Assembly (NCBI GenBank): GCA_963729525.1
Contig: CAVSOB010000010.1
Span: 162,860-226,859, forward strand
Source of the DNA: an uncultured Acidobacteriota bacterium
GTDB lineage: Bacteria; Acidobacteriota; Terriglobia; Acidiferrales; UBA7541
Length of the DNA: 64,000 bases
Reading direction: 5' to 3'
Below, piece by piece: positions 7,514 to 48,367 of this stretch (positions are counted from its first letter, which is position 1; each line of letters begins with the position of its first letter). The notes below the pieces were generated by a model. That model had not been told where the DNA came from. It searched no databases and worked only from the letters and a program-made list of their open reading frames with translations. A program made the translations under genes and the position numbers.

Positions 7514-8269
7514 TTATTCGGATTCCTCGCTGCCAGATCGGCAACCTGGTAAATGTCCGAGTTGTGCCTGCGTTGGCTGGCCGGCCCGCAGTTCGATCAC
7601 CAAGCGAGCGTTGTCGGAGCGAATCCCGACCGGCCCGTCGAAGGCAAGCGCATCGGGCCCTACTGAGCCTTCCCACACGAGCGAGTTGTCGGCGTAAACC
7701 TTCATCTCGGAGCCGTTCATTTCCGCGCGAAGTATATGCGTCGCTCCGGCACGCAAAACGGGAATCGGAAAGCTGCGGCGTGGCTTAATATTCCGGTATC
7801 CGTGGTTACCGCACTCAGCGCTGGTATGCTGGCCAGAGTTGCTTTTGACGGACACAACAAGCTTCGATTCCGGCTCCATGCGCCACATCGCATAAACCAG
7901 GTTGCAAGCGTCTTGCGCCCGTAACTTGAGGCCGAACTGGCGGCGCACTTCTCCAGACCCTAGGCGCGTCTCATCCGCTGTTGAGCCGAGATAGATGAAA
8001 TGTGCCTCGACAAGTTGTGGTGTGAAAGCGTTTACGTACGCGCGCATCTTCGGGACACTCACGGATAGCCGGCCCCCAGGCAGTTCCTCAATCGTTCCTT
8101 CCGTAACACAAAGATTCGGGCGCGAAACAGGCATTAGCTTGCTTGCTGAAGGGTTTGAGGTTGCGCTGATGCTCAACGCACCCAGGAACAGGAAAGCCCT
8201 CGTGTAGAGATACCGTCGTACTGGCATCCGGTGAATCAGGGGCATGCTACTCTTGTGACTTGACATCAT
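7514..8269 (-). CDS. Hypothetical secreted protein
   Basis: Long ORF with a signal-like segment (MPVRRYLYTRAFLFLGALSISA). I recognise no motif. The true start may be the internal ATG at 8227, because the ATG at 8269 overlaps the divergent DedA start codon by 2 nt. Confidence 0.55.
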   Translation of the reverse strand: MMSSHKSSMPLIHRMPVRRYLYTRAFLFLGALSISATSNPSASKLMPVSRPNLCVTEGTIEELPGGRLSVSVPKMRAYVNAFTPQLVEAHFIYLGSTADETRLGSGEVRRQFGLKLRAQDACNLVYAMWRMEPESKLVVSVKSNSGQHTSAECGNHGYRNIKPRRSFPIPVLRAGATHILRAEMNGSEMKVYADNSLVWEGSVGPDALAFDGPVGIRSDNARLVIELRAGQPTQAQLGHLPGCRSGSEESE

Positions 8270-9242
8270 GAATGACCTCCTTGCCCTAGTTAGCCGCCAC
8301 GGTTACATCATCATTTTTCTCATTGTTTTGGCGGAAGCCCTCGGAATTCCGGTGCCGGCTGCACTGGCGCTGGTCACAGGCGGAGCCGCTGTGGCATCGG
8401 GTGTCCTAAGCGCGCCGGCGGCAGCGCTTACCGCCGTGACGGCGATGCTGGTCGGAGACTCGCTGCTCTACGTACTTGGAAACCGCATGGGATGGAGGTT
8501 GTTGGGTTTTCTCTGCCGAGTCTCCATGGACCCCGAAACGTGTATCCTGCGAGCTGCGGAGTCGTTCTTCAAGCGCGGCCGGGCGACGCTCATGTTCGCT
8601 AAGTTCATCCCAGGATTTAATTCGATGGCCCCTCCTCTCGCCGGAAGTATGAAAATGCCATTCATGCAGTTTCTGGGACTAGACTTCCTCGGCGCCACCG
8701 CCTATGCGCTCGTATATGGCGGGATTGGATTTATCTTCCGCGATTTCGTCGCGACCATCGCGCACGGGTTTCAAGCGGCGGCGCACGCAGTCGAGGTCGC
8801 GGTAATCGTCGCCGCGATTGCATTCACCGCTTATCGTGTCTTCCTGTATTGGAAGCACCGGGTTTATCGCATCGTTCCACGGATACAGGTCGCCGAACTG
8901 GCGGCGAAGCTGAAGACTCAATATCCAGAAAAGATTCTGCTGGCCGATGTGCGCAGCCACGGCTACTACGATCCTGGTGCCCGCCGCATTCGAGGGTCGA
9001 TTCGACTGGAGCCGAACAATCTCACAGAAGAAGTCAAAACTCTTCCCAAGGCTAAAGACATCTACCTGTACTGCACTTGACCGCGCGAAGAGACGAGCGC
9101 CCGTGTGGCGTTCTTGCTGCGAGAGCAAGGATTCAACACGTTTGTCATCGTTGGCGGCTTGGTGGCTTGGCGCAAAGCCGGGAATCCGTTGGAGCCGGTG
9201 CCCGAGACCGACCTGGTGCATCTCCCCACCTTCAGCCGATAG
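8268..9242 (+). CDS. DedA-family membrane protein fused to a rhodanese domain; candidate selenoprotein with in-frame TGA (Sec) at 9078-9080
   Basis: The ORF track stops at 9080 after ...KDIYLYCT. The same frame continues as PREETSARVAFLLREQGFNTFVIVGGLVAWRKAGNPLEPV... to a TAG at 9240-9242, which is the missing C-terminal half of the rhodanese fold. The TGA lies in the active-site loop (C-T-U-P-R-E-E). Confidence 0.6.
9084..9121 (+). promoter_or_regulatory. Candidate bacterial SECIS hairpin
   Basis: Upper stem GAGCGCC (9095-9101) pairs with GGCGTTC (9107-9113): 7 bp including one G.U. Apical loop is CGUGU, with G at loop position 2. Lower helix CGCG (9084-9087) pairs with UGCG (9118-9121). 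The loop starts 21 nt after the UGA. Confidence 0.45.
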
Positions 9243-43942: not shown

Positions 43943-43978
43943 GACGCGCAGCCGGTTTTGACCCGGCCCACGCCTCCC

Positions 43979-46900
43979 ATGAAAGCGCCCCTACCCGAAA
44001 ATGAAGCGGCGCGCCTCGAATCGCTCCACCGCTATGCAATTCTCGATACGCTGCCGGAGCAGGAGTTCGACGATCTCTCGCGCCTGGCTGCGTTGATCTG
44101 CGGGACGCCGATCGCACTCGTAAGTCTGGTTGACGAGAATCGCCAGTGGTTCAAGGCGAAGGTGGGAATCGAGGAGTCGGAGACGCCGCGCGACATCGCG
44201 TTCTGCGCGCACGCGATTCACATGTCCAACGTCATGGTGGTCCCTGACGCGCTTGCCGACGAACGTTTCCGCTCGAATCCGCTCGTCACCGGGAATCCGA
44301 ACGTCCGGTTTTACGCCGGCGCGCCGCTTCTCACGCCGGAAGGGTACGCGCTCGGCACGCTGTGCGTGGTCGACCGGGTACCGCGGGAACTCTCGGCAGA
44401 TCAACTCGAGGCATTGAAGGCGCTCAGCCGGCTGGTGGTGAATGAACTGGAATTGCGGCGCAGCGTCGCCGATCTTTCCAAGGCTGTTCGCGAGCGCCGG
44501 CTGGTGGAAGGTGAGCTCGACCAACTCTTCCATCTCTCGTCGGACCTTTTTTGTATCGCGGGATTCGACGGATATTTCAAACGCCTGAACCCATCGTGGG
44601 AACAGACGCTGGGGATTTCCAGAAAAGAGCTTCTTTCGCAGCCGTATATCGAATTCGTTCACCCTGACGATCGCGAAACTACACTCAAGGAATCCGAGAA
44701 AATCGCAGATGGAGCGGCGATATTTTCTTTCGAGAATCGCTTCCGCTGCGATGACGGCACGTATATCTGGCTGCTTTGGAATGCGACACCCAGCAGCGAC
44801 CAAAACCTAATTTTCGCGGTGGCGCGCGACATTACTCTTCGCAAGCGCGCTGAGCGGCGACTGGCGGTGGGCTACACACTGACGCGGATTTTGGCCGAAG
44901 CAGAAAACCTTGGCGCAGCGTCGCCGCTTATTTTGCGCACGATTTGTGAAGGCCTTGGCTGGGAGATGGGCGCTTTCTGGCGGTTGGACGAACTCGCGCA
45001 TGTCCTGCGCTGCGTCGATCTCTGGCATATGCCGGGCCAGGAATTTCCCGGCTTCGAGAGAGCTACGCGCGAACTCACATTCCGGCGGGGCGAAAGTCTG
45101 CCGGGACTCGTTTGGGAGACGGGTCAGGCCAAATGGGTTACCGATGTGCCGGAGCGGGAGAACTTTCCTCGAATCAAAGTCGCGAGAAGCGAGGGCTTGA
45201 ATTCAGGGTTTGCTTTTCCGATACGAATTGACGATCGAGTGGTGGGCGTCGTCGAATTCGTGAGCAGGGAGATCCGGACACACGAACCTGAATTGCTGGA
45301 GATGTTCGATTCGATCGGCAGCCAAATCGGCCAGTTCATGGAGCGGCGGCGTGCGGAGAGCGAGTTAAAACTGTACGCCGATTACCTGGAGGCAGCGCGA
45401 CTCGCGCAGGAGGCGGATGCGCGGCGGCTGGCACTGCTCGTTCATGAGTTGGAAATTGCCAAGGCCCGAGCGGAGGAGGCCACGCGCTCGAAGAGCGAGT
45501 TTCTGGCGAATATGAGCCACGAGATACGCACGCCGATGAACGCCGTAATCGGGATGACGGAATTGGCTCTCGACACGAAGCTGACGTCCCAGCAGCGCGA
45601 ATATCTAGTGACGGTTAAAAACTCCGCGGGTTCGCTTCTGAACCTGATTAACGACATATTGGATTTCTCGAAGGCAGAAGCCAAGAAGCTCGAACTCGAT
45701 CGGGTGGATTTTGTGCTGCGGGACATGCTGGAGGATACGCTGCGAGCTTTGGCTATCCGCGCGCAGCAGAAAGGACTCGAGTTGGCCTGTCATGTAGCGG
45801 CCGAAGTGCCCGACGTTCTGGCTGGTGATGCGGAACGGCTGCGCCGCATCGTCGTGAATCTGGTAGGAAACGCGATCAAATTTACGGAAAGCGGCGAAGT
45901 GGTTCTGAATGCGAGCGTGGAATCCAGAACGAATGAAAACGTGGTTCTACATTTCTCCGTGACAGACACAGGCATCGGAATCCCCCGGGAAAAACAGAAA
46001 GCAATTTTCGAGGCGTTTGCGCAAGGCGACGCCTCGACCACTCGAAAGTATGGAGGCACCGGGCTCGGCCTTTCGATTTCGTCGCAACTCTCGGAACTGA
46101 TGGGCGGCCGCATCTGGCTGGAGAGCGAACCCGGCCGAGGAAGCACATTTCATTTCACGGTGCGCCTGGGATTGCAGAGGTCTGCGACCAGCGAGCAACT
46201 GCCGGTGCCCGTGAAACTGCTCGCTCTTCCCGTGCTGGTGGTGGACGACAATTCTACAAGCCGCCAGATCCTCGAAGAGATGCTGACGAACTGGAAGATG
46301 AAACCAGTCGCTGCAGCGAGCGGTCGAGCGGCGCTCGAGGCGCTCAAGCACGCGCAGAAAAAGGGCGAACCGTTTCGACTTGTTCTGGCCGACGGACACA
46401 TGCCTGGGATGGATGGATTCGATCTTTCAGCGAGCGTGCATAAGGATTCGCGACTTCGTGGAGTGACGATTATCCTTTTGACCTTTGCGGGTCACCGCGA
46501 AGATCAAGCACGCGCGAAAAGCGTGGGCGCGGCAGCCGCTGTGACCAAACCAGTGAAGCAATCGGAATTGTGGGACGCAATCGTCACCGCATTGCACGTT
46601 CCAAGCCCACAGAAGAGACGACCATCCGCGGCGCGAAGCGTGGCGCGCGGCTCGCACCGGAGATTGCGGGTGCTGGTGGCGGAAGACAATCCCGTGAACC
46701 AGGAGTTGGTGTTGCATCTGTTGGAGCGTAGAGGACATTCGGCAATCGTCGCGGAGAACGGCAAGCAAGCGATCGCAGCACTCGAAAAACACAAATTCGA
46801 TCTGGTGGTGATGGACGTTCAGATGCCGGAAATGGGAGGCATCGAAGCAACCGAAGAAATTCGAAGAAAAGAAAAAAGTAATGGTGGCCACGTGCCAATT

Positions 46901-47461
46901 TTCGCGATGACGGCCCATGCGATGCCCGGCGATCGTGAGAGATGCCTCGCGGCGGGGATGGACGGGTACATTCCGAAACCGATTGACCCAAAATCGTTCG
47001 CGCAAATCATCGAAAGCGGCGTATCGCCCTCGGCAACGGCACCTGGACATAATGAAAAACCGTTGGATCAGGCAAAAGCTGATGGAGCCGTCGACGCACA
47101 AAAGCTCGTCGAGCGATTCGGCGGCAATCGAAAACTAATGCGATCTTTGATCGAAGCGTTCCGGCACGACTGTCCCAAGATGATGACAAAAATCCGAGGG
47201 GCTCTCTCCGCACGCGATGCGCGGGCCCTGGCGGAAGCGGCTCACGCGTTGAAAGGGTCGGTGGGAAACTTCGGGGCTTCGAGCGCCTTCGAAACAGCTC
47301 GGGAGATTGAAAAAAGCGGCCGAGAGGGTAAACTCGACGGCGCCTGGGAGCTCTACGCCACCCTGGAAGACGACCTTGCAGGGCTCTTGCCGGCACTGCA
47401 GTCTGCCGCCAATCCGAAGGGTGTGAAGGCTCGAGTTAAAAGGAAGGCGAGCGGGGCCTGA
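43979..47461 (+). CDS. Hybrid sensor histidine kinase: GAF-PAS-GAF-HisKA-HATPase-REC-REC-Hpt
   Basis: H-box SHEIRTPMNAVIG; N/G boxes NLVGNAIKFT, DTGIGI, GGTGLGLSIS; two receivers (LADGHMPGMDG; DLVVMDVQMPEMGG); Hpt motif HALKGSVGNFG. Confidence 0.9.
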   Translation: MKAPLPENEAARLESLHRYAILDTLPEQEFDDLSRLAALICGTPIALVSLVDENRQWFKAKVGIEESETPRDIAFCAHAIHMSNVMVVPDALADERFRSNPLVTGNPNVRFYAGAPLLTPEGYALGTLCVVDRVPRELSADQLEALKALSRLVVNELELRRSVADLSKAVRERRLVEGELDQLFHLSSDLFCIAGFDGYFKRLNPSWEQTLGISRKELLSQPYIEFVHPDDRETTLKESEKIADGAAIFSFENRFRCDDGTYIWLLWNATPSSDQNLIFAVARDITLRKRAERRLAVGYTLTRILAEAENLGAASPLILRTICEGLGWEMGAFWRLDELAHVLRCVDLWHMPGQEFPGFERATRELTFRRGESLPGLVWETGQAKWVTDVPERENFPRIKVARSEGLNSGFAFPIRIDDRVVGVVEFVSREIRTHEPELLEMFDSIGSQIGQFMERRRAESELKLYADYLEAARLAQEADARRLALLVHELEIAKARAEEATRSKSEFLANMSHEIRTPMNAVIGMTELALDTKLTSQQREYLVTVKNSAGSLLNLINDILDFSKAEAKKLELDRVDFVLRDMLEDTLRALAIRAQQKGLELACHVAAEVPDVLAGDAERLRRIVVNLVGNAIKFTESGEVVLNASVESRTNENVVLHFSVTDTGIGIPREKQKAIFEAFAQGDASTTRKYGGTGLGLSISSQLSELMGGRIWLESEPGRGSTFHFTVRLGLQRSATSEQLPVPVKLLALPVLVVDDNSTSRQILEEMLTNWKMKPVAAASGRAALEALKHAQKKGEPFRLVLADGHMPGMDGFDLSASVHKDSRLRGVTIILLTFAGHREDQARAKSVGAAAAVTKPVKQSELWDAIVTALHVPSPQKRRPSAARSVARGSHRRLRVLVAEDNPVNQELVLHLLERRGHSAIVAENGKQAIAALEKHKFDLVVMDVQMPEMGGIEATEEIRRKEKSNGGHVPIFAMTAHAMPGDRERCLAAGMDGYIPKPIDPKSFAQIIESGVSPSATAPGHNEKPLDQAKADGAVDAQKLVERFGGNRKLMRSLIEAFRHDCPKMMTKIRGALSARDARALAEAAHALKGSVGNFGASSAFETAREIEKSGREGKLDGAWELYATLEDDLAGLLPALQSAANPKGVKARVKRKASGA

Positions 47462-47500
47462 CGTCACCCATCGCCTGCATCATGTACCGCGGAGGAAACG

Positions 47501-48367
47501 ATGACGCGCATCCTTGTCGCTGATGACGACCGCACAACGCGCCTGCTCCTGACCGAAATTCTGCGCGGTGGGAAATATACTGTGGTGGCCGTTCCTGACG
47601 GTGCGGCCGCGCTGAAGAAGTTAAAAGAGGATAAGTTCGATCTGGCGCTGCTCGACGTGTGGATGCCCAAGAAAAACGGCCTGGAAGTTTTGTCAGCGCT
47701 GCGGAAGAGCAACAAGAAGCCAAAAGTGATCGTGATGACCTCCGACGACACACCCGAAACCCTCCTGAGCGCCATCCGCGAGGAAGCGTACCAATACGTA
47801 GCCAAGCCGATCGAACCGAGATCGCTGTTGGTGCTGGTACGGGAGACGCTTGCAAAAACATCGAAGACTTTGCCGATCGAAGTGATTTCCGCGCGACCCA
47901 CGTGGGTGGAACTCTCTGTGCCGTGTTCTCTCGAAGCGGCCGAGCGTATTGAAGCATTCATGTCGCACATGAAGGCAGGCTTGTCTGAAGAAGTGCAACG
48001 CTCCGTGGGCCAAGCGTTTCACGAGCTGCTGCTGAACGCTGTGGAATGGGGCGGAAAGCTGGACCCGAGCCGCAAGGTGCGCATTTCATATCTGCGGGGC
48101 AACCGGATGGTGCTGTACCGGATTGCGGACCCGGGGCCAGGATTTAAGTTTGCGGAGCTCCAGCACGCAGCAATTACCCATCGAGCCGACGAGCCAACGA
48201 AACATGACGAAGTGCGCCAGCAGAAAGGTTTGCGTCCCGGGGGATTTGGATTGCTGCTGGCAAAGGCGAATGTGGACGATCTGCTCTACAACGAAGCGCA
48301 AAACGAAGTCGTGTTCGTGAAGTATCTCGATGAAGAGGGTTCTGCGAAGCAGGAAGCCGCGAGCTAG
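47501..48367 (+). CDS. Response-regulator receiver fused to an RsbW/SpoIIAB-like HATPase domain
   Basis: REC: ILVADDD, DLALLDVWMPKKNG. C-terminal: ELLLNAVEWGG, ADPGPGF, GFGLLLAK. It lies 39 nt downstream of the hybrid kinase on the same strand. Confidence 0.8.
   Translation: MTRILVADDDRTTRLLLTEILRGGKYTVVAVPDGAAALKKLKEDKFDLALLDVWMPKKNGLEVLSALRKSNKKPKVIVMTSDDTPETLLSAIREEAYQYVAKPIEPRSLLVLVRETLAKTSKTLPIEVISARPTWVELSVPCSLEAAERIEAFMSHMKAGLSEEVQRSVGQAFHELLLNAVEWGGKLDPSRKVRISYLRGNRMVLYRIADPGPGFKFAELQHAAITHRADEPTKHDEVRQQKGLRPGGFGLLLAKANVDDLLYNEAQNEVVFVKYLDEEGSAKQEAAS

Follow-up and report, generated by a model that had tools for sequence, protein, structure and literature searches.

A probable membrane selenoprotein of Acidobacteriota with selenocysteine at the rhodanese catalytic site of a DedA fusion

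The window analysed here, a stretch of 64,000 nucleotides from an uncultured Acidobacteriota bacterium (contig CAVSOB010000010.1, positions 162,860 to 226,859), contains at positions 8268 to 9242 of the plus strand an apparently interrupted gene, which we consider very probably to be one single gene for a membrane selenoprotein of 324 residues with selenocysteine (Sec) at the catalytic site of a rhodanese domain. The frame that opens with the ATG at 8268 reads ...KDIYLYCT (TAC TGC ACT) before it reaches the TGA at 9078-9080; past this codon it stays open for another 53 codons, PREETSARVAFLLREQGFNTFVIVGGLVAWRKAGNPLEPVPETDLVHLPTFSR, and ends with the TAG at 9240-9242. The C-terminal peptides of the read-through part include AGNPLEPVPETDLVHLPTFSR. 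A first-pass annotation, which was made from the letters alone, had described both the continuing frame and the position of the TGA inside a rhodanese fold, and both descriptions are borne out, the latter by a Pfam rhodanese match that spans codon 271. The assignment draws on the recoding signature, on homology, on the catalytic position of the codon and on a conserved hairpin downstream of it, and the features that concern the codon and its domain are the following.

8268-9242, + strand: predicted complete selenoprotein gene of 324 codons with Sec as codon 271 and TAG 9240-9242 as the true stop (sequence and frame; 324-residue homologues share the end ...HLPTFSR-stop).
9078-9080, + strand: predicted Sec-UGA, codon 271, in the catalytic cysteine (Cys) column of the rhodanese loop U-P-R-E-E-T-S (TGA in 52 loci versus TGC/TGT in relatives; alignments with GlpE, 6MXV and TKB26178.1).
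9072-9074, + strand: codon TGC of Cys269, the vicinal Cys of the motif C-x-U (invariant in alignment A2 and present in all Sec forms).
8907-9176, + strand: rhodanese domain (residues 214-303), which only the read-through product contains in full (Pfam PF00581 at 34.6 bits; AlphaFold2; Foldseek).

The relatives of the window protein fall into long and short forms, which differ at exactly this codon. Among the full-length homologues of the 324-residue class (66-80% identical to the window protein) that were returned by a protein search, 75 of 76 read Y-C-[TSA]-C, the remaining one having Trp, and 43 of the 44 short homologues from the same search (270-291 residues, 82-96% identical) stop exactly at ...YCT. 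The first-pass annotation had given Y-C-[ST]-C-P for the Cys-containing relatives; the Cys is right (YCTC, YCSC and YCAC occur), while the Pro is limited to the closest relatives. On the DNA level, for which species-representative genomes and metagenomes were used, the codon is TGA in 49 loci (35 distinct 120-nt segments), TGC in 25 loci and TCA in one. With a third clade (L086-L088) the total of TGA loci increases to 52 in at least three clades, which reach down to 33% protein identity, and the stop at this codon is always TGA, with TAA or TAG in none of these loci. The distant TGA loci L057 and L059 (64% identity), L070 and L071 (61%), L075 (57%) and L083 (33%) have an open and conserved continuation after the TGA that ends in ...PTFSR-stop or ...PTFA-stop. 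A second protein search, seeded with the L083 protein, added two further truncated groups of 267 and 268 residues from Terriglobales and Acidoferrales; here, LYC[TS] is terminal in all 14 complete short proteins, C-x-C is found in 104 of 105 full-length relatives, including members of the Verrucomicrobia and Nitrospirales, and the DNA of the 268-residue group again shows TGA, followed by PNEATSARVA.... The homologue alignment that had been suggested as a check along with the first-pass annotation thus places Cys at the TGA position in almost all full-length relatives of both searches.

The sole departures from Cys among the complete full-length relatives are one Trp and one Ser variant. Locus L041 has TCA (Ser, at 1346-1348) at the Sec codon although it is nested in the Sec clade, and protein P0079, from a Cys clade, has Trp (presumably TGG) at the Cys column; each of the two is one base away from TGA or TGC and could represent a sequencing error or an inactive allele. 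In an approximate neighbour-joining tree, Sec forms are located on several deep branches and the Cys forms P0001, P0002, P0008 and P0044 lie inside the Sec clade of the window protein, from which it appears that Sec and Cys have been exchanged repeatedly.

Which residue of the rhodanese is replaced follows from two alignments. In a profile-profile alignment of the family with GlpE of E. coli, the catalytic Cys65 of GlpE aligns with the second Cys of the C-x-C motif, which is the Sec column, and the active-site Cys of 6MXV (...YFYCGGGFRS...) falls on the same column for both of its domains in an hmmsearch alignment. Judged by these alignments, the TGA occupies the canonical catalytic Cys column itself. 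The earlier placement of the TGA two residues after the catalytic Cys was therefore wrong, and Cys269, two residues upstream of Sec271, is by the same alignments an additional vicinal Cys. The active-site loop U-P-R-E-E-T comprises six residues, which in the classification of Bordo and Bork is reportedly the length of the sulfurtransferase type. The closest solved structure by sequence, Alr3790, was of no use as a guide to the catalytic residue, since it is without both Cys; GlpE and 6MXV were taken instead.

Downstream of the UGA lies a candidate for the selenocysteine insertion sequence (SECIS), which overlaps with a competing helix.

9095-9113, + strand: candidate apical hairpin of a SECIS, stem 9095-9101 with 9107-9113, loop CGUGU at 9102-9106, universally conserved core 9097-9111 (energy, spacing, RNAalifold, pair counts and frozen synonymous sites).
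9081-9087, + strand: 5' arm of a competing helix, which pairs with 9102-9108 (minimum free energy (MFE) fold of the single sequence; 93-95% paired across relatives).

The hairpin consists of the 5' arm GAGCGCC, the loop CGUGU and the 3' arm GGCGUUC. The model of the bacterial SECIS (bSECIS), as quoted in PMC13188914, describes a loop of 3-9 nt, a stem of 4-16 bp, a spacing of 16-37 nt, an MFE of -7.5 kcal/mol or below and a G as the first or second loop nucleotide, mostly with G or U after it. With its 5-nt loop, a 7-bp stem, 21 nt from the UGA to the loop and -9.7 kcal/mol, the hairpin lies inside all of these ranges, and the loop with G at position 2 is present as it had been described in the first-pass annotation.

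The significance of the hairpin comes from the comparison with relatives and not from the window alone. Codons +6 to +10 after the TGA encode Ser-Ala-Arg-Val-Ala, all of them four- or six-fold degenerate, and across the 35 distinct Sec forms they are almost frozen: AGC in 35 of 35, GCC in 34, CGU in 32 (the others being CGG), GUG in 35 and GCG in 35, compared to 1.1-1.8 bits of synonymous entropy at nearby Ala, Thr, Leu and Val codons. The only change within the stem is a C to U opposite G, which is still paired, and the change from CGU to CGG sits in the loop. If the third clade is included (38 distinct Sec forms), 5 of 190 codons are off the consensus at these positions, compared to 4 of 15 in three Cys-form genes with the same SARVA (Fisher p = 0.002, ignoring phylogenetic non-independence). 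In two more Cys forms the amino acids are altered and the loop G or the stem is gone. One of the three Cys-form genes, L094 (protein P0025), has the identical 15-nt core, L090 (P0001) has one wobble-preserving change and L093 (P0044) three synonymous changes, which looks like the graded decay of a fossil SECIS after conversion of Sec to Cys.

The RNAalifold consensus is a 5-bp stem with a 5-nt loop, and the apical five pairs are formed in 100% of 34 distinct sequences, including changes of G-C to G-U and of C-G to U-G. Further down, pair 18-36 occurs as G-U, C-G, G-C and A-U, pair 19-35 is A-U in 15 of the 34 sequences and unpaired in 19, and the lower stem (7-10 with 41-44) is about 90% paired without covariation. 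Of the 38-nt hairpin with a 7-bp upper stem that had been proposed in the first-pass annotation, support is thus limited to the apical 5-7 bp, of which five pairs, together with the loop, are universal. We regard the comparison across relatives as decisive, and it argues for a constraint on the hairpin core at the RNA level in the Sec forms. Beside the hairpin, where Thr stands just ahead of the UGA it is encoded by ACT in 34 of 34 Sec forms (ACC in L086), and the UGA is followed by C in 31 of 35 sequences and by G in the others, which suggests that the codon context around the recoding site (window 9075-9081) is constrained as well.

Several results weigh against the assignment of a SECIS and of Sec insertion. 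On the single sequence the hairpin is only mildly unusual, as a bulge-free hairpin under the same criteria for loop, G, spacing and energy follows 5.1% of the 1,793 TGA triplets of the window; moreover, the MFE fold of 9078-9130 uses the other helix, so that the hairpin is not the MFE structure, and its z-score compared to shuffled sequences is -0.16. Because the single-sequence fold is this weak, we dropped thermodynamics as evidence and relied on the comparison with relatives. No match to an Rfam SECIS model was obtained, neither for the whole window at the gathering threshold nor for 9040-9180 at E <= 10; this result is uninformative, since the bacterial SECIS models of Rfam are lineage-specific. 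The identical 15 nt in the Cys form L094 indicate that codon preference contributes something to the conservation, and because the hairpin region hardly varies, only one pair shows true compensatory covariation. The competing 7-bp helix (columns 4-10 with 25-31) fits the data nearly as well as the hairpin. We ranked it lower as a functional element because it starts 1 nt after the UGA and would thus be inside the ribosome, in the mRNA channel, while the UGA is decoded, shows no compensatory change and loses two pairs in the third clade; from the established size of the ribosome footprint, a ribosome that holds the UGA in its A site would open this helix, which might sequester the SECIS loop until the ribosome arrives. 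Finally, no tRNA-Sec was found by ARAGORN in the window and 21 loci, and neither in the window nor in 902 kb of related loci did tblastn detect SelA, SelB or SelD.

The tblastn probes were SelD, SelA and SelB of E. coli, a Sec-containing SelD and the AhpD-like selenoprotein of Occallatibacter riparius from the deep-Sep supplement, none of which had a match in 845-902 kb of related DNA. Since the loci represent a small sample of each genome, the lack of Sec machinery in them is expected. For Acidobacteria, Sec use is on record (3 families and 4 selenoproteins as of 2006, PMC1794560), O. riparius has three known selenoprotein genes (PMC12013277) and Sec-type hydrogenases have been found in Acidobacteriota. 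From this record we infer that Sec is also decoded in the host genome.

Among the alternatives, a read-through of the UGA without Sec, by a near-cognate tRNA (Trp or Cys) or another kind of suppression that is aided by a weak UGA-C context and the hairpin, survives best, and we still consider it improbable. UGA followed by C is a poor termination context in bacteria, and the predominance of C after the UGA would fit such a read-through, as would the outcome of the search for Sec machinery. However, the codon is located at the catalytic Cys column, where the rhodanese family already has a catalogued Sec form, loop, G and spacing of the hairpin are those of SelB-dependent SECIS elements, the phylum is a known Sec user, and an inefficient near-cognate read-through would not keep TGA over TGC for so long in several clades.

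Even less probable is a genuine stop, which would leave a DedA protein of 270 residues with what remains of a decayed rhodanese, the 53 codons after the TGA being a non-functional fossil. All gene callers and public sources do annotate the gene in this way, as a 'VTT domain-containing protein' of 267-278 residues, and TGA is an ordinary stop in this genome. However, a fossil frame is not expected to behave as the downstream codons do: over the 50 codons after the TGA, frame 0 is free of stops in 48 of 49 loci, the exception being L083 with its shorter C-terminus, while 46 and 44 of the 49 loci have stops in frames +1 and +2, respectively. Likewise, the pairwise ratio of nonsynonymous to synonymous differences (pN/pS) is 0.206 for these 50 codons compared to 0.331 for the 100 codons upstream of the TGA, and by this measure the downstream frame is under purifying selection. 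The TGA loci also share their C-terminus (...PTFSR-stop) with the Cys homologues across 33-96% identity, and the exclusive use of TGA among the three stop codons speaks against an ordinary termination site. The ordinary use of TGA, which ends 11 of the 36 long non-overlapping open reading frames (ORFs) in the window, also rules out a genome-wide reassignment of the codon. A sequencing or assembly error with TGC or TGT as the true codon can practically be dismissed: although TGA is one base away from both and the isolated odd variants in L041 and P0079 exist, TGA is shared by 52 loci that were assembled independently of each other from numerous samples and projects (ENA, JGI, NCBI and Logan among them).

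Taken together, the alignment of TGA with Cys, the TGA loci, the selection on the downstream frame, the frozen hairpin and its agreement with the bSECIS model support the first-pass proposal of a Sec-UGA in a DedA-rhodanese fusion with a SECIS downstream. In the mechanism that we favour, the UGA at 9078-9080 would be read as Sec, with the mRNA hairpin at 9095-9113 (core GCGCC-CGUGU-GGCG) acting as a bacterial SECIS that brings SelB·GTP·Sec-tRNASec to a ribosome paused at the UGA, at which moment the helix just after the UGA would be melted by the ribosome; the dependence on SelB and SECIS is predicted from the sequence features described above. The product would comprise an N-terminal polytopic DedA/VTT domain, a final transmembrane helix, a basic linker and a single rhodanese domain. 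The basic linker after the last transmembrane helix places the rhodanese, by the positive-inside rule, probably in the cytoplasm. There, Sec271 in the U-P-R-E-E-T loop would be the catalytic nucleophile, with Cys269 as a likely resolving or partner thiol in a C-x-U arrangement. The likeliest chemistry would be a chalcogen transfer or redox reaction at the membrane, in which Sec271 carries a persulfide-type adduct (Se-S or Se-Se) or is joined to Cys269 in a selenenylsulfide, which a thiol reductant would then resolve. In cells without selenium or the Sec machinery, the ribosome would terminate after codon 270, and the rhodanese of this product would lack its catalytic residue together with two β-strands and two helices. 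As selection keeps Sec at the catalytic site, the rhodanese half is arguably an active redox or transfer centre rather than a regulatory appendage.

Both domains are recognised in the read-through product, and the features of the membrane part are given here.

8388-8729, + strand: DedA/VTT membrane domain, residues 41-154 (Pfam PF09335).
8784-8855, + strand: last transmembrane helix, residues 173-196, with the basic linker WKHRVYRIVPR before the rhodanese (helix 173-196 in the AlphaFold2 model of P0001; hydropathy maximum 2.02).

The DedA/VTT match reaches 41.1 bits and thereby passes the gathering threshold of PF09335 (33.9 bits), and the linker region (residues 195-212) contains 4 K/R versus 1 D/E. 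The threshold of PF00581 (22.2 bits) is exceeded by the read-through product only; for the 270-residue product there is no longer a Pfam rhodanese call in the precomputed annotations. A structural model was obtained with AlphaFold2 for P0001, a Cys form 80% identical to the window protein, with a mean predicted local distance difference test score of 76. In this model the rhodanese contains a strand (264-268), the loop (269-274), a helix (275-286), a strand (290-294), a helix (297-303) and a strand (308-310), according to which about 40% of the rhodanese fold would be lost, along with the catalytic residue, if translation ended at codon 270. In a Foldseek search with the model, all matches were single rhodanese domains, including BH2092, Alr3790, 6MXV, Sud, YgaP and GlpE.

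The matches to the NCBIfam models of DedA/UptA are weak and far under their cutoffs: for the UptA-type undecaprenyl-phosphate (UndP) flippase equivalogs NF052605 and NF052604, the window protein scores 41.1 and 31.4 bits compared to cutoffs of 300 and 250, so that a UndP flippase function cannot be assumed. Characterised UndP flippases are reported to have two conserved Arg in the second re-entrant-loop motif (R130 and R136 in YghB). By eye, this motif corresponds to residues 111-119, AKFIPGFNS (window 8598-8624), with K...N, and alignment A2 shows no conservation at the second of these positions. Possibly, the DedA half is not a canonical UndP flippase.

The window has a G+C content of 57%. 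The gene stands alone on the plus strand and is flanked by opposite-strand genes for a GT2 glycosyltransferase, an ORF of unknown function and a HAD hydrolase; in the third clade the neighbouring genes are different, and the gene context gives no functional clue. Its start at 8268 overlaps the start of a divergent minus-strand ORF (7514-8269), which leaves no intergenic promoter space. In some homologues 8 extra N-terminal residues are called (278 residues), and the starts given here are provisional. Among 95 further TGA-interrupted ORF candidates in the window, the ten that were translated turned out to be adjacent same-frame genes or antisense frames, and no second selenoprotein gene was evident. 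One such case, at 43958-48365 of the plus strand, is a hybrid sensor histidine kinase ORF of 1,167 codons that ends at a TGA at 47459; a response-regulator ORF, which begins with MTRILVADDD, comes after it without a change of frame. We rejected this TGA as a Sec site, since it lies between two neighbouring genes that share one frame.

The public copies of the Sec form found here (NCBI, JGI, ENA and Logan) are, without exception, shortened to 267-278 residues and carry the name 'VTT domain-containing protein' or 'membrane protein DedA', which affects dozens of 90%-identity clusters; none of the NCBIfam selenoprotein models captures the Sec form, and due to this systematic truncation the catalytic half of the protein is invisible in current databases. 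If our assignment is correct, the rhodanese selenoproteins would gain a polytopic membrane fusion that is widespread among, and maintained by, abundant soil Acidobacteriota (Acidoferrales/Terriglobales). The SECIS core, which is unchanged down to 33% protein identity, and the apparently repeated exchange of Sec and Cys would offer a clean case in nature in which to study SECIS constraint and Sec/Cys turnover. This does not overturn the current understanding, but extends known categories. More far-reaching, and in our view rather unlikely, would be a widespread, so far unrecognised membrane selenoenzyme of soil Acidobacteriota in which the DedA transporter or scramblase domain is mechanistically coupled to the C-x-U chalcogen-transfer site, possibly handling selenite, selenide or sulfane sulfur at the inner membrane face. 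Such an enzyme would provide a molecular basis for a connection of DedA to selenite that has long been known from genetics without an explanation (Ledgham et al. 2005, as reported in a citing paper) and would represent a sixth, membrane-integral 'form' of rhodanese selenoproteins.

The E. coli fdhF-type SECIS and the bSECIS consensus share with the hairpin of the window the position as a coding-region stem-loop right after the UGA, a small loop with G then U at positions 2-3, an upper stem of 5-7 bp, a spacing within the range of 16-37 nt and a ΔG below -7.5 kcal/mol. In contrast to the fdhF-type element, the hairpin of the window is without sequence similarity to the Rfam SECIS models, and the binding of SelB is putative here. 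Comparable domains at or near the membrane are YgaP of E. coli and Sud, the polysulfide-sulfur transferase of Wolinella, which are single-domain rhodaneses and structural matches to our model. However, YgaP is anchored by two C-terminal helices and not by an N-terminal DedA domain, and both proteins have Cys at the active site and no C-x-C/U motif.

As had been noted in the first-pass annotation, rhodaneses are a reported family of bacterial selenoproteins. A 2026 review of prokaryotic selenoproteomes lists five 'forms' of rhodanese selenoproteins, of which form 3 is NF041203 with the motif CxU and the example TKB26178.1, credited to Zhang and Gladyshev 2005; the corresponding entry in a 2022 review is COG0607 form 2, and the CxU form was first predicted in 2005 by these authors with bSECISearch. 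NF041203 (rhodanese_LYCAU, 'rhodanese-related (seleno)protein') is also the best NCBIfam match of the window protein (E = 9.3e-21), with 73.8 bits lying below the cutoff of 115 bits. TKB26178.1, taken from the deep-Sep supplement, shares 32% of 108 aligned residues with the window protein (pairwise E = 5e-17), and the Sec columns coincide within a common LYCxU motif (LYCAUPNEYTSARLA compared to LYCTUPREETSARVA in the window). In contrast to the window protein, the NCBIfam reference has about 126-150 residues (profile length 126; 150 residues in TKB26178.1) with an N-terminal signal or anchor and no DedA, whereas the rhodanese of the window forms the C-terminal third of a 324-residue DedA fusion and is probably cytoplasmic.

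The two-domain architecture itself is documented for the Cys type, in a COG0586 DedA subfamily and in PA1209 of P. aeruginosa, where the role of the rhodanese is called unclear. These proteins, named 'DedA family protein/thiosulfate sulfurtransferase GlpE' at NCBI, also share the C-x-C motif and occur in Acidobacteriota, Verrucomicrobia and Nitrospirales; the close relatives among them have 66-80% identity with the window protein. The Cys-type fusions differ from it by Cys instead of Sec at the catalytic column and by hairpin nucleotides that drift or are lost. DedA, VTT or PF09335 are not mentioned in the table of the 2026 review and in the deep-Sep text and supplements, and full-text literature searches linking DedA with selenoproteins returned nothing relevant. 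Within the literature searched, the Sec-bearing DedA fusion is thus unreported, and the fusion is so far known in its Cys form only. The window protein therefore belongs to a known kind, the CxU rhodanese selenoproteins, but its membrane-fused architecture is new and not covered by the curated family model; the novelty lies in the DedA fusion and not in the Sec-rhodanese.

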